DNA from: Chthoniobacterales bacterium | GTDB taxonomy: Bacteria > Verrucomicrobiota > Verrucomicrobiia > Chthoniobacterales > JAFAMB01 | DNA: 43,613 nt | Assembly: GCA_035483355.1 (NCBI GenBank) | Contig: DATHPZ010000088.1 | Coordinates: 1-43,613, forward strand | Direction of reading: 5' to 3' | Shown: piece after piece, positions 1 through 16,619 of the stretch | Position numbering within the stretch: the first letter of the stretch is position 1 | How the letters are laid out: each line of letters begins with the position of its first letter | Position numbers and translations under genes: made by a program | Notes under the pieces: generated by a model | What the model was told of the DNA's origin: nothing | Database searches by the model: none | The model's input: only the letters and a program-made list of their open reading frames with translations

Positions 1-321
1 AGGTGCTTCGTTTGCTGGCAAAGATGCGACGAAACTAAGTTCGCGGAGATGGGTCTCCAAGGGGCTCCCACCCCAACGGGTCTGGCCCGGTTATGCGTCG
101 TTAGTGGGCCGGACGATGCGATTGAGCAGTGCGTTCATAAAGCCAGGGCCGGTCGAAAGACCCTGGCTTCCAAGCGTGCGTAGAGTCTTGCCAGCTTTCC
201 TACCTCTTAGAAGGGTCCTATGTTGCTCCGCAGTCCTGTAAGAGCCCAATGAAGGCAGTCAGGAGCACCCCAGGGCTAGCTAAGCTTAGAGCGCACGCCG
301 TGGGGACAGGACACCAATCGA

Positions 322-1079: not shown

Positions 1080-2189
1080 CTACCTGCGTGCCAGCCGGAA
1101 AAACAGTGTTCCGCCGAGCATCAGATAGACAAAGTTCGGCAACCAGATCAGATATTCCGGATGCAGGTTGGGCTTATGCTTCACGTTGTCCGTTATCACG
1201 ATGATAATAAAATAAGAGAAGGCGACGATTAGACTCAGAGCGATACCGACCGAGGTTTCTTTTCGCTGGGCGGTAATCGCCAGCGGGATCCCGACCAGGA
1301 CAAAAGTAAAAACCGCCATCGCGTTGGAAAAGCGCTTGCTCACCTCAGTTTTGAAGGCTGCGTCATCCTCTTTATCATTGCTCTGCTTGAGGGCATGTTG
1401 CAGCTGATCCAGAGTGAGTTCGGTGGTGCGCTGATTGTTTCGGGCCTTACGAAGCAATTCTTCCAAAGAAATTGGCATCACGCCCTCGCGCATGGTGATT
1501 CCGTGTCGCATTTTCTTAAGGTCATCGGGAGCATTCTTATCCCGCTCTTCATACCGGGCGTCATAGACGTGTAACAAAATCTGCTCGTTCTTTTTGTCGA
1601 CCTCGAGGGTGCCTCGGCGGGCGTTGATCACGCGCATCGGCAAATTCTGGGGATTCATCTCGAAGATATAAAGATCGTGCAGATTTGATCCTTCCTTTTT
1701 TCCGACATAGATCTTTCGATTCGGGAACTGGTCGATCACTTCGTCACTGCCAAACAAGGCGAGCGGATCATTCGATGCGAGGTCGAACACTGCCGACCGC
1801 AGCTTAACTTCTGCAATCGGCGCGGCATAGAGGTTGATCCAGAGACAGATGCCCAGGAACACGATTGCGATTACAAAGACGGGGTAGCAGATACGCGTCA
1901 TGCCGACGCCATTGGCCCGAAGTGCCACCAGTTCGTTATCGGAGGAGAGCTTTCCGAATACGAGGAGTACCGCTACGAGCACCCCCCAAGGAATCGAGTA
2001 GGTCAATGAAAACGGCAGCAGATAACCGATGAATGTCAGAATGTAGGTGACCGGAACCTGATGACTGAGCAACAAGCTGAGCAAATCGCGCAAGACATTG
2101 CCCAGCACAAGAATCACGGTAAGCAGGCTGACGGCCCAAATCACGGCGGTCAGAATCTGTCCGCTCAAATAACGATCGATGATCTTCAT
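1080..2189 (-). CDS. LptF/LptG family LPS export permease (YjgP/YjgQ)
   Basis: 369 aa. The N-terminus MKIIDRYLSGQIL is typical of LptF/LptG. Architecture is three TM segments, a large periplasmic domain, then three TM segments. Confidence 0.8.
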   Translation of the reverse strand: MKIIDRYLSGQILTAVIWAVSLLTVILVLGNVLRDLLSLLLSHQVPVTYILTFIGYLLPFSLTYSIPWGVLVAVLLVFGKLSSDNELVALRANGVGMTRICYPVFVIAIVFLGICLWINLYAAPIAEVKLRSAVFDLASNDPLALFGSDEVIDQFPNRKIYVGKKEGSNLHDLYIFEMNPQNLPMRVINARRGTLEVDKKNEQILLHVYDARYEERDKNAPDDLKKMRHGITMREGVMPISLEELLRKARNNQRTTELTLDQLQHALKQSNDKEDDAAFKTEVSKRFSNAMAVFTFVLVGIPLAITAQRKETSVGIALSLIVAFSYFIIIVITDNVKHKPNLHPEYLIWLPNFVYLMLGGTLFFRLARR

Positions 2190-2230
2190 CCTACCGGGTT
2201 CCGTCCGGTTGGAGGTCGGGAGTTTTGCTT

Positions 2231-2505
2231 AGTGTCCTGTCGCCGAAATAACATGCCTTTTGCCGTAGGTCAGTTGGCTGTTTTTCAAGGCGCGAGCGAT
2301 GCGCCCATATCTGAGTCATACGGGTCGAGCGAGCAACGCGTAAAAACGGCCAACCGGCCACGGCCCAGTGGGTTGCGATGAAAATGGGCCGGCGGCTGCG
2401 TTGCTCGTCGGTCACGTATCGATTCAGATATGCTCCCTTCTCGCGCCTTGCCGGCGGCCCATTTTGATCGCAACAAAAGGCATGTTATTTCGGCGACAGA
2501 ACACT
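2231..2505. repeat. Structured palindromic intergenic element, copy A (long hairpin; possibly an ncRNA or a MITE/ERIC-like element)
   Basis: The 31-nt terminal arms 2231-2261 and 2475-2505 are complementary at 30/31 positions. Inner helices are 2286-2296/2440-2450, 2306-2314/2424-2432 and 2330-2339/2398-2407. It is collinear with copy B at 13886-14154. Confidence 0.75.
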
Positions 2506-2507
2506 AG

Positions 2508-5390
2508 TCAACTTGCGGGCTCCATCCCGTGAGACAACTCTTCTGCCTCCACGGGGACGCAGCTGCAGAAAAGGTTTCTGTCGCCATAGACATTGTCTAT
2601 TCGGCCGACGACAGGCCAGAATTTGTGTTCTCGCGTCCATGGCGCCGGGTAAGCTGCAGATTCCCGCGAATAGCTTCGATCCCAGCTGTCAGCTAGAAGA
2701 TCTTGCGCCGTATGGGGCGACCGTTTGAGGACGTTATCTTCGCGGTCGGCTTCTCCGGTTTCGATGGCTCGAATTTCACCGTAGATCGAAATCATGGCAT
2801 CACAGAAACGATCTAGTTCAGCCTTCGATTCGCTCTCGGTCGGTTCAATCATCATTGTTCCAGGAACCGGCCAGGACATGGTCGGCGCATGGAACCCGTA
2901 GTCCATGAGACGCTTGGCAACATCTTCGACCTCAATTCCGGCAGACTTTTTGAACTGCCGAAGATCGATGATGCACTCGTGGGCAACACACCCGTTTTTT
3001 CCTTTGTATAAAATGGGGAAAAATGGCGCTAACCGGCTGGCAACATAGTTCGCGTTCGCGATCGCTACTTTGGTCGCGTGCCGCAATCCTTCCGGACCCA
3101 TGAGGCGAAGATAAATCCAGGAGATGCCCAGGATACTGGCGCTACCATAGGGAGCTGCGGCAATTGGGCCGATGCCTGATTTCCGGCCGAAGTCCACGAA
3201 AGGATGGCCCGGCAAATAGGGAGCCAGGTGAGCTTTCACTCCGATCGGGCCAACTCCCGGGCCTCCACCGCCGTGCGGTATGCAAAATGTCTTGTGCAAA
3301 TTCAGATGACACACGTCCGCTCCGAAGTCGGCTGGACGGCAGAGCCCCACCAGAGCGTTCATATTCGCGCCATCCATATAAACCTGCCCGCCGTGCTGAT
3401 GGACGATTTCACAAATCTCCGTGATTCCCTCTTCAAATACGCCGTGGGTTGAAGGATAGGTCACCATCAAGGCGCCGAGTCTTTCCGAATGCTGCTCCGC
3501 TCTTTTCCTGAGATCACCGAGATCGATATTCCCCTGGGCGTCACATTGCACCGGGACCACCTGGAATCCAGCCATTGCGGCCGAGGCGGGATTGGTCCCG
3601 TGAGCCGAAGTTGGAATCAAGCACACGTTTCTCTGAGTTTGTCTCCGTTCACGATGATATTCCCGAATTACCAACAGACCTGCGTATTCGCCCTGCGACC
3701 CGGCATTGGGTTGGACAGTCACCTCAGCGAACCCCGTAATGGCAGCCAGCCAACTCTCCAGCTCAAGGATCAGCTGTCGATACCCGGCCGTTTGAGCGGC
3801 AGGCGCAAACGGATGGATCTGGCCGAGTTCCGCCCAGGTGACGGGGAGCATCTCCGCCGCGGCATTCAGTTTCATCGTGCAGGATCCCAGCGGGATCATG
3901 GAAGTCGTCAGTGACAGATCCCTGGACTCGAGCCGATGGAGATAACGCATCAGCCCGGTCTCAGTGTGATGACTATTGAAAACAGGGTGCGTCAGATAAG
4001 GAGACCTGCGAACAAACTCTTGAGGGATATCGCCAACTTCCGCCTCGGAAAGATCCGGAACGAAGTCCGACTTATCATCGGCAAAAAGATTCACCAGAGT
4101 CTGAAGATCCTCTTCGGAAACCGTTTCATCGAGACTGATCCCGATGGAGTCATCATCGAAAATCCGGAAATTGATCAAGGATGCCGCCGCCTTGGTGAGG
4201 ATCGCGTTCCTCCGCTGACCGAGCTTCACCCGGAGGGTATCAAAACGCGGATCGCCTCCGACTTCCAAACCAAGTTTTTCCAAACTGAAGGCCAGCCTTC
4301 CCATCTGCCGTTGGATCCGTTCCGCGATCTGTCTCAAGCGATTTGGGCCATGATAAACGGCGTAAGTCGCAGCAATAACGGCTAATAAAACCTGAGCGGT
4401 ACAGATATTACTCGTCGCTTTATCGCGTCGGATATGTTGCTCACGGGTCTGCAACGCGAGCCGGTAACCGGGACGTCCAGCCGGATCTTTTGAAACCCCG
4501 ACCAACCGCCCCGGCATAAGCCGTTTGAATTGGTCACGCGTGGAAAAGAATGCGGCATGCGGACCGCCGTAACCGAGCGGAACGCCGAATCGCTGCGTCG
4601 TTCCGACACAGATATCTGCCCCAAACTCACCCGGAGGAACAAGGAGCGTCAGGCTCAGAAGATCTGCGGCGACAACAGCGAGCGCCTGACCTTCATGAAG
4701 CCGCTGGATAAAGGTCGTGTAGTTGTAGATGGGTCCGTCGGTCGCAGGATACTGGAGCAACGCTCCAAAAAGTGGTTTCTTGAAATCCCAAGTGCGGTGA
4801 TCTCCAACGATCACTTCGATGCCCAGCGGCTTGGCCCTGGTTTCAACAACGGCGACGGTCTGTGGATGACAGGTTTGCGAAAGAAAAAACGTTCGGACTG
4901 AAGTCTGCTTCCGCAGTGCGAAACACATCGCCATCCCTTCGGCTGCGGCGGTGGATTCATCCAATAACGAGGCATTGGCGATCTCCAACCCTGTCAGATC
5001 GGTCACCATGGTCTGGAAATTCAGTAGAGCCTCGAGGCGTCCTTGTGCGATTTCCGGCTGATAGGGTGTGTATGCCGTGTACCAACCTGGTTTCTCCAGA
5101 ATATTCCGTTGGATCACAGGCGGAGTCACGCAAGCATGATAGCCAAGGCCGATATAGGATTTTGCCACCCGATTTTTGAGAGCAATTTCTCGGAATGTTC
5201 GCAGGACTTCGAACTCGCTATCAGGCTCGGGTAGATTCAGTTCATCATCAGAGCGAATCGCTTCCGGAACCGTGGCGTCGATCAGAGAGTCAAGGGAATG
5301 GTGGCCAACTTGTTGCAGCATCTCCTGCAATTCTTCCTCGCTGGGACCAACGTGCCTCTCAACGAACGACGGAAAGCCCATGTTTGCCAT
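2508..5390 (-). CDS. gcvP: Glycine dehydrogenase (decarboxylating), single-chain P protein of the glycine cleavage system
   Basis: About 960 aa with typical GcvP sequence throughout ([33 protein letters not shown]). I placed the start at ATG 5390 ([13 protein letters not shown]) rather than at the ORF maximum of 5510. Confidence 0.9.
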
Positions 5391-5562
5391 TTTCCTGGAA
5401 AGCTTCCTACTCAGCATCGCGGAACATGGAGCAGAGGAGCGAGGATTACAAGTTGCCGGCGGGCGGAATGAGGATGAGAGGGGCACGAACGCGTTACCGC
5501 CCTGATTCATTCAATCCGCTCCTAACGGTTGCCCAGCGTTGGTTCCTACATATCGTGACGAG

Positions 5563-12404: not shown

Positions 12405-13369
12405 CACCATCGTCCGTGCTCGTGGTCAAACCAAGCTCGCTTGGCGATATCGTCCACACCCTGCCGGCCGTCCATTATTTGAAGACGACTTTTCGGGATG
12501 CGCAAATTTCCTGGATTGCGAACACGGAATGGGCGCCCCTCCTGCAGGAGAATTCCGACCTCAAAACAGTGATCCTGTTGCCCAGAAAAGAGTTCACAGG
12601 TCCGATCGGGATTTTCAATTTTGTTCGATGGTGTCGTGGACTATCGCGATTGGAACCCGACCTGGTCCTGGATTTTCAAGGGTTGCTGCGAAGCGCATGG
12701 ATTTCGCGGAGCGCGAAAGGCAAGTCGGTGTTCGGCTTGTCGGATTCAAGAGAAGCGTCTCGATTCTGTTACGACAGGCGAGCCGTGGTCAATCCCAGCC
12801 AGCACTCTGTCGAGCGCTATCTGGAGCTGGCGAAACTCGCCGGGGCTGACACTTCCGGACCGATTCTATTCCCTTTGCCGCGCGGAAAAACGATCCCATC
12901 GCTCGAATTGCCGGAGCGTTTCGTCGCCCTACACCCCTTTGCGCGCGGAGCCGGCAAATCTTTGACGCCGAAGGAGATCTTTGAGTTTATCAATCTGCTT
13001 ATTCCAATTCCCGTCGTTGTCGTTGGACGATCCAGCGCGAGCTTTGCGATGGGTCGCAACGGAGTCTCGGTGGTCAATCAAACCGATTTACTTGAATTGA
13101 TCTGGATCCTGCGTCGATCGAGTTTCATTGTCAGCGTCGACAGCGGTCCGATGCACATTGGCGCGGCAATCACTCCGGAGTTGCTCTCGATCCACACCTG
13201 GAGCGACCCGGGATCGGTTGGGCCTTATAACCCCGATGCATGGATATGGAAGGGCCGCCGCATTTTTCAGGTGCGGTCAATTCGATCAGGAGAATCGCGG
13301 GAGGGAAACCATGAGCGTCCTAACCTCGCCCAGATCGCGAGTTTTGTGCGCGACCGGTTGTTGCATTAA
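12401..13369 (+). CDS. Glycosyltransferase family 9 (heptosyltransferase-like)
   Basis: The N-terminus VLVVKPSSLGDIVHTLPA is typical of GT9, and the C-terminus has a VDSGPMHIGAA motif. An ATGA start/stop overlap links it to the upstream gene. Confidence 0.8.
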   Translation: MTPSSVLVVKPSSLGDIVHTLPAVHYLKTTFRDAQISWIANTEWAPLLQENSDLKTVILLPRKEFTGPIGIFNFVRWCRGLSRLEPDLVLDFQGLLRSAWISRSAKGKSVFGLSDSREASRFCYDRRAVVNPSQHSVERYLELAKLAGADTSGPILFPLPRGKTIPSLELPERFVALHPFARGAGKSLTPKEIFEFINLLIPIPVVVVGRSSASFAMGRNGVSVVNQTDLLELIWILRRSSFIVSVDSGPMHIGAAITPELLSIHTWSDPGSVGPYNPDAWIWKGRRIFQVRSIRSGESREGNHERPNLAQIASFVRDRLLH

Positions 13370-13397
13370 TCCCTCCTCGTCGCTATTGGAATCAGAT

Positions 13398-13886
13398 ATG
13401 CCTTCTTTCGACATCGTCTCCGAGGTGGACAAGCAAGAGATTGACAACGCGATCAACCAGGCGAGGAAAGAATTGAGTACGCGGTTCGATTTCAAAGACA
13501 GTAAGGCCACTGTCGAAATGGCCGACCCTGAGCTGATTCAACTCACCGCAGAAGATGGCGGCAAATTAAAGTCCTTGATGGAAATCGTGATCGGAAGACT
13601 CGCGAAGCGGAACATCGATCTCCGTAATGTGGAACGAAAAGATCCGGCGATTTCGCCGCTTGGACACGCGCGTCAGGAAATTCACATCAAGCAGGGGCTG
13701 GACGGCGACAAAGCCAAGGAGATCATCAAAGCGATTAAAGCGCTGGATGCCAAGGTTCAGAGCCAAATCCAGGATCGGCAAATCCGAGTGACAGGCAAAA
13801 AGAGAGACGAACTTCAAGCGGTCATTCAATTCCTGCGGAGCAAGGATTTCGGCGTTGGTCTCGGTTTCAAGAACTTCAGAGACTAG
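13398..13886 (+). CDS. yajQ: YajQ family (UPF0234) nucleotide/cyclic-di-GMP-binding protein
   Basis: 162 aa starting MPSFDIVSEVDKQEIDNAINQ..KEL..RFDFK, the canonical YajQ N-terminus. The longer ORF from 13128 overlaps the GT9 gene and is not credible. Confidence 0.85.
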   Translation: MPSFDIVSEVDKQEIDNAINQARKELSTRFDFKDSKATVEMADPELIQLTAEDGGKLKSLMEIVIGRLAKRNIDLRNVERKDPAISPLGHARQEIHIKQGLDGDKAKEIIKAIKALDAKVQSQIQDRQIRVTGKKRDELQAVIQFLRSKDFGVGLGFKNFRD

Positions 13887-14154
13887 TGCATCGTCTCATA
13901 AGTGGGAGGCATACCGCCGTCGGCGATTTGGCCGATTTTCAAGGCGCGAGCGACGAGCATACTTTGATCCGTGAGGAACGAGCAACGCGGAAAATCGGCC
14001 AAAGCGCCATCGGCCCTCTGGGTTGGCTTGAAAAGGGTCCGTCTGCGTCGTTGCTCGTTCGTTACGGATCGAAGCGGATACGCTCCTCACTCGCGCCTAG
14101 CATCCAGACCCTTTTGAAGCCAACGGTATGCCTCCCACTTATGAGACGATGCAC
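13886..14154. repeat. Structured palindromic intergenic element, copy B (homologue of 2231-2505)
   Basis: The 31-nt arms 13886-13916 and 14124-14154 are complementary at 31/31. Inner helices are 13942-13950/14090-14098 and 13977-13988/14049-14060. Conserved core blocks are shared with copy A in the same order and strand. Confidence 0.75.
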
Positions 14155-14167
14155 GAGTGTCCTGTGA

Positions 14168-16501: not shown

Positions 16502-16583
16502 TCCATAACGGGTGAAAGCGACGTTCTGATCAAGTTCTTTTCTTGCCAATGATCCCTGGTGTTGGTGACTTTCAGGGATTGTC

Positions 16584-16605
16584 TGTCCTGTCCCGGGACA
16601 GGACA
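16584..16605. repeat. Perfect 22-bp palindrome TGTCCTGTCCCGGGACAGGACA in the divergent parA-like/TPR intergenic region (candidate operator or REP-like hairpin)
   Basis: The perfect palindrome can be read directly. On the minus strand it contains AGTGTCCTGTCCC, the same motif that forms the outer end of element A. Confidence 0.6.
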
Positions 16606-16619
16606 CTAGCTATAACTTT

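Follow-up and report, generated by a model that had tools for sequence, protein, structure and literature searches.

A highly structured intergenic element of a Chthoniobacterales genome is very probably a miniature transposon mobilised by IS630-family transposases

Introduction

The 43,613-nt contig DATHPZ010000088.1 of a Chthoniobacterales bacterium (Verrucomicrobiota; GenBank assembly GCA_035483355.1), which was analysed over its whole length and is called the window here, contains a stretch of about 275 nt with extensive self-complementarity between the genes for GcvP (2508-5510, minus strand) and LptF/G (1080-2189, minus strand). An earlier note made from the sequence alone had named these flanking genes correctly, had reported a second copy of the element in the window, and had offered several speculative roles, among them a stable RNA loosely resembling 6S RNA, an RNase III substrate or 3'-end stabiliser, a terminator, and a foldback mobile element. 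The locus raises the question whether such a strongly folded spacer represents a new RNA gene or mobile DNA. Our analysis of sequences from the window and from related genomes indicates that the element, called copy A in the following, is very probably a non-autonomous miniature transposable element with inverted repeats (MITE) at 2232-2504, which belongs to an undescribed Chthoniobacterales family and would be mobilised by IS630-family transposases.

Results

An empty allele defines the ends of copy A

The relatives of the LptF/G gene of the window led to about 25 orthologous loci (retrieved loci are numbered with the prefix L). At the locus L127, which is 95% identical to the window at the DNA level, the sequence gttgac-TA-agcaaaac has only one TA and lacks the element (...gttgac-TA-agcaaaactcccgacc...), while the minus strand of the window reads gttgac-TA-[GTGTTC...273 bp...GGACAC]-TA-agcaaaactcccgacc. 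This comparison places copy A at 2232-2504, with the TA doubled at 2230-2231 and 2505-2506. The pairing of the outer arms, which had been drawn within 2231-2505, is real, and a repeat search even extended the arms to 2225-2262/2474-2511 (38 nt, 92%); likewise, the single mismatch inside these limits was recovered as C2236/A2500 on the plus strand. However, each arm as originally drawn takes in one base of the TA duplication.

At about 15 of the orthologous loci the gcvP-lptG spacer comprises 31-68 nt and lacks the element. Copy A stretches the spacer between these two co-directional genes from 43 to 318 nt. In two other species the same spacer has been invaded independently by elements with other types of terminal inverted repeats (TIRs), namely in L122 (2309-2501), where the element has its TA 1 nt ahead of the lptG ATG, and in L139 (2354-2501), where a remnant was found. 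The gcvP-lptG spacer is a recurrent insertion target. The contig carrying the empty allele (L127, DATHQH010000003.1) is 2.6 kb long and binned as 'Alloacidobacterium sp.'; its LptG is 99% identical to that of the window, and it looks like a mis-binned Chthoniobacterales contig.

A second empty site was found for copy B, which is present at 13884-14156 including its duplications. The interior of copy B is about 73% identical to that of copy A, and its outer arms have a different sequence. Among contigs with identical ThiS the site is polymorphic: it is empty in L436 (...cacaggagat-TA-gtctctgaag...), filled in L434, L435, L437 and L441, and occupied by an internally deleted copy in L440. In the empty allele the adjacent YajQ gene ends with the stop codon TAA, whereas in the filled allele TA and the first G of the element make up a TAG stop; the YajQ protein is therefore unchanged by the insertion. 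Both verified targets read C-TA-A, and both empty sites show a 2-bp TA duplication.

Copies, termini and variants of the family

The family is multi-copy, with more than 55 copies recovered from many Chthoniobacterales metagenome-assembled genomes (MAGs). A 17-mer of the core was found at more than 117 loci in species-representative genomes. Nearly all of these are MAGs assigned to Chthoniobacterales or 'Verrucomicrobiae', and individual MAGs (CAVULL01, CAVXLD01) contribute at least 7 loci. Because the loci were retrieved by sequence patterns, the probe sequences are conserved by construction. The copy numbers are lower bounds. The genomes consist mostly of MAGs, in which some contigs have evidently been mis-binned. 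When the 213-nt core was compared with the retrieved loci by BLAST, 43 full-length cores were obtained that are 77-94% identical to copy A.

Copies measure 269-298 bp and have a G+C content of about 55-60%. The ends GTG...CAC were found in 51 elements, most of which are flanked as c-TA...TA-g. All copies are bordered by paired arms of 30-35 bp with the common ending CTAG/TG...CA/CTAG, and each arm is built from a conserved 12-nt terminal block (GTGYVCYGTCYC) followed by a module of about 18 nt. About seven discrete module types exist, which are always matched between the two arms of an element, as would be expected if both ends have to be recognised by one transposase. Successive left and right termini are spaced by 270-330 bp in 44 of 60 pairs, and some shorter derivatives occur, including TIR-only minis of about 46-55 bp (L096:5409-5454, L047:569-623) and reduced variants of 168 bp (L016) and 221 bp (L098) that lack one hairpin or have another centre. 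The copy in L005 is the single case with TAA on both sides. An origin of the core as captured host sequence was rejected, since 55 of 57 full-length cores bear both termini; the two exceptions are degraded copies.

Collectively, the family unites the features of MITEs, namely a length below some 300-500 bp without coding capacity, TIRs, a duplicated target and multiple dispersed copies. Many copies, constant termini, the TA duplication and empty sites bear out the mobile element among the roles offered in the earlier note, and many copies with identical ends and target-site duplications were exactly what it had named as evidence against a novel structured RNA. The view that coding is unlikely was also confirmed: copies differ by indels of 1, 2, 4 and 17 nt, which are not multiples of three, and the open reading frames across copies A and B lie in different frames. 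The family represents undescribed small non-coding transposons of soil Chthoniobacterales; a literature search on MITEs of Verrucomicrobia and Chthoniobacter, with ISfinder and Dfam outside its scope, gave no relevant prior description.

Some further observations concern variants and hosts. In a sister variant of about 220 bp (L098:2473-2693, L019:1747-1965, L074:273-505) the TIR, arm a and the start of bL are retained, as are the end of bR and arm c' of the core described below, while a', the linker and c are swapped for another central palindrome (CCCGCCCCACTTT...AAAGTGGAGCGGG), which leaves arms a and c' partnerless. In L047 (36-1120) a pair of an Xre-like antitoxin and a RES-domain toxin lies between the TIR-only mini (569-623) and a MITE end (2081). 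The contig L052 (CAVSCN010000028.1) of an 'Actinomycetota' MAG carries a full MITE copy and looks like a mis-binned Chthoniobacterales contig, with horizontal transfer as the less likely explanation.

IS630-family insertion sequences carry the same ends

IS630 elements target CTAG and duplicate TA. Candidate parents were found by scanning genomes for TIRs of the first clade (clade 1) with a base other than G where the MITE core would start, and the clade-1 terminus proved to be present in many phyla. At L233:1195-2331 an insertion sequence (IS) of 1137 bp was identified (cc-TA-GTGTCCTGTCCCATAAATAAC...GGGACAGGACAC-TA-gt), whose one 366-aa open reading frame scores 274 bits on the NCBIfam model NF033545 'IS630 family transposase' (cutoff 100) and contains the Pfam domains DDE_3 and HTH_23/29/32. 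More than 10 other full-length ISs of 1.14-1.2 kb have L233-type ends and CTAG flanks. The outer approximately 21 nt of the MITE match the end sequence of this subgroup, GTGYNCYGTCYC-NNAAATAAC. Over the first 21 nt, MITE TIR types and IS ends are identical at 15-20 positions, with 20/21 for the type 2 TIR versus L233, 18-19/21 for the left TIR of copy A, and 15-17/21 for the other types. The MITE and these ISs also have the TA duplication and the C-TA-G flanks in common; they differ in that the ISs are 1.14-1.2 kb long, encode a DDE_3/HTH transposase of 366-372 aa and have TIRs of about 16-27 bp, whereas the MITE has no open reading frame.

A similar IS is present in a closely related host. 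The locus L223, with an intact homologue of 372 aa, and the locus L120 come from one MAG. The LptG of L120 is 93% identical to that of the window and among the closest to it, and the right end of the L223 IS (GTGTTCTGTCGCATAAATAAC) agrees with the right TIR of copy A (GTGTTCTGTCGCCGAAATAAC) at 19/21 positions. In L029 a 1160-bp IS630-family copy has its TA in common with an adjoining MITE. A second TIR clade (GTGYACCGTCTC) is likewise found on IS630-family ISs (L370, L326, L429), and the L370 transposase is 60% identical to that of L223; a Gammaproteobacterial chromosome carries at least 10 copies of ISs with termini of this clade. The IS ends in L223, L029 and L078 were read by hand.

The search for parent ISs near MITE copies covered the first 1.3 Mb of loci. 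Long terminus pairs in L047 (1512 bp) and L057 (2054 bp) were discarded, because they enclose host genes (the RES/Xre pair and an aminotransferase, respectively) and no transposase; a candidate in L049 from the combined TIR-pair and reading-frame filter is a gene between two MITE copies. An origin of the MITE as a deletion derivative or antisense version of an IS was also rejected, because the comparison gave only 10-mer matches (E of about 0.7).

Several side observations were made on the distribution of these ISs. The subgroup with GTGT(A/C)C(C/T)GTC(T/C)C termini occurs in at least 8 phyla, and IS630-family ISs with such ends are present in at least 10 near-identical copies on two closed MAG chromosomes of Gammaproteobacteria/Pseudomonadales (L326, L329-L331, L335, L340, L351, L366 and L380 on OY761822.1, many on OZ241339.1). 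A second IS630-family lineage with the ends TA-GTACTTA.../TA-GTGCCTAATTGC... in CTAG context was seen in the same Verrucomicrobiae MAGs (L078:4330-5450, L372:6700-7830). Tandem elements on one common TA occur at L029:1862-3314 (IS630-family IS and MITE) and in L028 near 2332 (two MITEs), as would be expected if the CAC-TA-G junction recreates a favoured target.

The conserved fold consists of twin hairpins

Copy A folds strongly on both strands, with minimum free energies (MFE) of -160.5 (plus) and -155.6 kcal/mol (minus) compared with shuffle means of about -98 and -93 kcal/mol, corresponding to z = -12.1 and -11.8, respectively; 0 of 200 shuffles were equally good. The nested helices described before were recovered as 2286-2296/2440-2450 (11/11), 2292-2317/2421-2446 and 2318-2339/2398-2419, and the long hairpin with an internal bubble of 24 x 24 nt is indeed the MFE structure of copy A. 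It is, however, the fold of a decayed copy only and not that of the family.

The alignment A2, which comprises 45 complete copies, shows a core of fixed polarity in the order TIR, a (25 nt), bL (about 54 nt), a' (25 nt), linker, c (25 nt), bR (about 53 nt), c' (25 nt) and TIR, where bR is approximately the reverse complement of bL. Pairing is found in 96.7% of the cells for the 30-nt TIR stem (21/30 pairs changed on both sides), in 96.8% for helix a:a' (8/24 pairs) and in 90.5% for helix c:c' (10/25 pairs). The main central helix of the long hairpin, bL:bR, is paired in 73% of the cells with 3/37 pairs changed on both sides (5/51 compensatory over all bL:bR pairs); hence, the long hairpin was rejected as the conserved fold. 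RNAalifold independently gave the TIR stem, a:a' and c:c', which also form the MFE structure of the near-consensus copies L026 and L059 on both strands. The family-conserved fold is a TIR stem with two internal 25-bp hairpins. The compensatory counts exceed the number of independent events, because the copies are related and many double changes are common to subfamilies.

This architecture explains the peculiarities of copy A. The pairing 2372-2396/2450-2474 (25 nt, 92%), which had been described as alternative or pseudoknot-like, is present, but it is the family-conserved helix c:c' rather than an alternative. Its mirror image a:a' (2262-2286/2340-2364) had been overlooked because it is partly decayed in copy A, and only because of this decay does copy A favour the long hairpin. 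The 24 x 24 bubble is formed by arms a and c' without their partners.

Core and TIRs have separate histories

When TIR types are compared with each other, identity is 49% for the TIR module and 89-92% for the stems a/a' and c/c'; for the loops bL and bR it amounts to about 78%, within as well as between types. Variants of the core assort independently of the TIR type. They comprise two forms of bL, a 17-nt insert that bR may or may not contain, and one replaced segment. Chimeras were also seen: the arms of L073 are of two types, and L016 represents half an element whose arms are heterologous. Most simply, copies would have recombined with one another and with resident ISs, and a few master copies per lineage would then have given rise to bursts.

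In this regard it has to be considered whether the twin-hairpin core is a selected functional module, acting as RNA, DNA cruciform or binding platform between exchangeable IS630-type TIRs. The highly paired helices with changes on both sides, the agreement of RNAalifold with the MFE of near-consensus copies on both strands, the contrast between stem and module identities, and the fact that the core practically never occurs without TIRs would be in line with it. On the other hand, many double changes are inherited within subfamilies (e.g. by copy B together with L071), so few events are independent, and among related copies a shuffle control can be exceeded without structural constraint. Template switching at quasi-palindromes is an established mutational mechanism, and it or arm-to-arm conversion can create seemingly compensatory changes without selection. 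Moreover, the core is unbiased in its orientation to genes and has no match in Rfam, and the variants L016 and L098 as well as the TIR-only minis are viable. We regard a selected module as unlikely. The more specific version, in which the core of about 213 nt is a selected cargo structure, made of RNA or cruciform DNA, that was repeatedly re-fitted with TIRs of different IS630 relatives and spreads by means of transposon ends, appears still somewhat less likely; if true, the core would function in transposition, for example in synapsis or hairpin-assisted excision, or in the biology of host mRNA 3' ends.

Target choice and gene context

The TA and the terminal G of the element form the stop codon of the adjacent frame at 19 junctions, which belong to 18 of 56 copies; the count refers to open frames of at least 110 codons and not to validated genes. 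At these junctions the core has the same orientation as the adjacent gene in 9 cases and the opposite one in 10, and almost no copy lies within a long open reading frame. Such a distribution is consistent with a transposon that seeks CTAG/CTAA and whose presence at the ends of genes is tolerated; it argues against a strand-specific RNA function.

In the earlier note the element had not been recognised as a named RNA family, and Rfam gave no hits at the gathering threshold for the whole window and none at E<=10 for 2150-2600. A stand-alone structured RNA gene, 6S-like or other, with two paralogous copies would account for the very stable fold and for the closing stem with a large internal loop in copy A. 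It is, however, extremely improbable in view of the dozens of copies that each lineage contains and that have the termini of transposons and duplicated TAs, presence or absence of the insertion among near-identical genomes, the empty Rfam result, the unbiased orientation and the lack of an evident promoter. Intrinsic terminator or promoter function was rejected as well, because searches of the element gave only weak consensus matches for both; an IHF site was not found in it. Neither strand has a T-run after the stem, and the terminator-like hits are small internal hairpins.

A different possibility, which is compatible with the MITE identity, is that copy A acts in cis on gcvP-lptF/G as RNase III target, 3'-end stabiliser or transcriptional or translational barrier. 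The expansion of the spacer between two co-directional genes, the very stable fold on both strands and the independent invasion of the same spacer in L122 and L139 could be taken in its favour, as could the Correia/NEMIS elements, whose transcript hairpins are cut by RNase III and change how much of the flanking mRNAs is present (PMC2229807). The missing T-run and the small, internal nature of the terminator-like hits speak against it; in addition, the site is empty in nearly all relatives, so any cis effect is not conserved. Such an effect is considered possible but doubtful.

Further elements in the window

The 43.6-kb window contains two full copies, one mini element and one solo terminus (Table 1). 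On its thiS side, copy B has a flank unlike that of the empty allele: 14155-14166 of the window reads CACAGGA-CAC-TC, against CACAGGA-GAT-TA at L436:2390-2400, with the other flank sequence identical. The flank in the filled allele is a 10-nt string that resembles the clade-1 terminal block and could have been left, as a footprint or remnant, by an element that once occupied this TA. The mini-palindrome, which is located just upstream of a ParA-like gene, could be a TIR-only mini element or a product of deletion or excision. No recognisable core or left end was found upstream of the solo terminus. Outside these elements, gcvP (minus) and gcvT (plus) are seemingly divergent at 5510-5539, with less than 30 nt between the starts of the longest open reading frames, which are maybe over-extended; the Rfam search of the whole window gave no glycine riboswitch.

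Table 1. Coordinates of MITE copies, their parts and related termini in the window.
Feature	Position	Strand	Remarks
MITE copy A	2232-2504	+ (core polarity, convention of alignment A2)	273 bp, ends GTG...CAC
TA target-site duplication of copy A, left	2230-2231		single TA in the empty site of L127
TA duplication of copy A, right	2505-2506		1 nt from the gcvP stop codon (2508-2510)
Left TIR of copy A	2232-2261	+	terminal block GTGTCCTGTCGC and subterminal module CGAAATAACATGCCTTTT; 29/30 paired with 2475-2504
Right TIR of copy A	2475-2504	+	reverse complement GTGTTCTGTCGCCGAAATAACATGCCTTTT; 19/21 as in the right end of the L223 IS
Helix arm a	2262-2286	+	5' strand of the 24 x 24 bubble in the long-hairpin drawing; pairs with a'
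bL, loop of hairpin 1	2287-2339	+	approximate reverse complement of bR
Helix arm a'	2340-2364	+	partly decayed in copy A
Helix arm c	2372-2396	+	25 nt, 92% complementary to 2450-2474
bR, loop of hairpin 2	2397-2449	+	from family alignment
Helix arm c'	2450-2474	+	pairs with c; from RNAalifold and family pairing
MITE copy B	13886-14154	+	269 bp, divergent subfamily, perfect 31-nt TIR GTGCATCGTCTCATAAGTGGGAGGCATACCG
TA duplication of copy B, left	13884-13885		with G13886 forms the TAG stop of the DUF520/YajQ gene (ORF 13128-13886)
Right duplication of copy B, degenerate	14155-14156		GA where TA is expected
TIR-only mini-palindrome	16583-16609		27 nt, two clade-1 terminal blocks head to head, tgtcctgtccc/gggacaggacac-TA-g
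Solo degenerate right terminus	302-317	-	GGGGACAGGACAC-CA, 5 nt from the stop of a Fur-family gene (322-921, -)

Discussion

The analysis identified a non-coding, TIR-bounded and multi-copy element with precise TA-duplicating insertion at two sites and with TIR identity to IS630-family ISs. This constellation resembles several known systems. The RUP element (repeat unit of pneumococcus) is a TA-inserting, TIR-bounded repeat linked to IS630-Spn1, and its mobilisation in trans has been proposed on the grounds that a resident IS630-family IS has similar TIRs (PMC2229807). Both are non-coding intergenic elements with TA insertion and IS630-family-like TIRs, and the logic and the evidence are the same, although the likeness rests on kind and not on sequence comparison. 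RUP differs in being 107 bp long, AT-rich and from a Firmicute, while the Chthoniobacterales MITE is longer, occurs in Verrucomicrobiota, and has several 30-nt TIR types and a twin-hairpin core. Correia/NEMIS elements of Neisseria, whose TIR is TATAGTGGATTAA..., are likewise TA-flanked MITEs with long-hairpin transcripts that often lie beside genes, again a resemblance of kind only. They have 104-155 bp, IHF sites and promoters and no identified parent IS, in contrast to the IS630 parent family found here. Their RNA-level effects, namely cleavage by RNase III, follow from insertion (PMC2229807). Stowaway MITEs are mobilised by Tc1/mariner transposases, duplicate TA, use borrowed TIRs with an interior unrelated to the parent, and form hairpins; they differ by their eukaryotic hosts and other transposase clades, and insertion at stop codons via CTAG/CTAA is a feature of the bacterial elements described here.

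Assignment to another superfamily, either IS5/PIF-Harbinger or REPINs mobilised by RAYT, was also considered. MITEs of the IS5 family and of PIF-Harbinger have duplications of 3-4 bp (TNA or YTAR), and IS5-family elements also favour CTAG/YTAR targets, with which the TAA flanks of the L005 copy would agree. The 2-bp TA duplication at both verified empty sites and the match of the TIRs to ISs with an IS630-family transposase well above the curated cutoff led us to reject this class. REP/REPIN sequences are abundant intergenic palindromes as well, and the TIR-only minis of 46-55 bp superficially look REP-like. RAYT/IS200-type transposition is not known to produce a target-site duplication. REPs have 20-40 bp, a GTAG or CGTC tag and 8-9-bp stems and are associated with IS200/IS605-like tyrosine transposases (PMC3733652); such tag, stem and target features are absent from the MITE family. 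The REP/RAYT class was rejected based on the TA duplication and the IS630-family termini, with RAYT genes outside the search. Altogether, another superfamily seems highly improbable.

Some points weigh against the identification as an IS630-mobilised MITE. First, the window encodes no transposase, and mobilisation in trans by IS630-family enzymes is inferred from TIR identity and the TA duplication. Second, no IS was recovered with the exact TIR of copy A or B, the best values being 19/21 for A and 16/21 for B. The inner 9-12 nt of the MITE TIRs and the entire core have no counterpart in the ISs; therefore, the MITE is not a simple deletion derivative. Third, the internal stems are better conserved than the TIR modules and show compensatory changes, which neutral evolution of a MITE does not predict and which the model of recombination and bursts leaves unexplained. 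Finally, the thiS-side flank of copy B differs from the empty allele at 4/5 nt beside the element without explanation.

The proposed mechanism is as follows. A DDE transposase of the IS630 family, encoded at another place in the genome, would bind the outer approximately 21 nt of both TIRs, excise the element and insert it at a TA, preferably in the context C-TA-G or C-TA-A, thereby duplicating the TA. Since CTAG and CTAA hold a stop codon and the element begins with G, many copies come to lie at or beside stops and leave the proteins unchanged. Copy A landed 1 nt past the gcvP stop, and copy B changed the yajQ stop from TAA to TAG. The strong fold is a consequence of the palindromic transposon build, and read-through transcription would produce a large RNA hairpin between gcvP and lptF/G as a by-product of insertion. 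If transcribed, the element may affect neighbouring mRNAs at the RNA level, by analogy with Correia elements.

Copy A represents mobile DNA of an ordinary kind rather than a new RNA gene. For genome annotation this means that MITE masking should be applied to hundreds of very stable hairpins of about 275 nt in soil metagenomes and in genomes of Chthoniobacterales, which should not be listed as candidate non-coding RNAs; the elements probably also cause assembly breaks and mis-binning in these abundant uncultured soil bacteria. Regarding MITE biology, the family provides a bacterial case in which the family itself, the TA duplication, population-level empty sites and IS630-family parents can all be read from sequences. 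The history of the core, which is uncoupled from that of the TIRs, poses a modest but real question on the build of MITEs and the constraints acting on them. Moreover, the family shows how a CTAG/CTAA-seeking element accumulates exactly at stop codons and leaves the genes undamaged.

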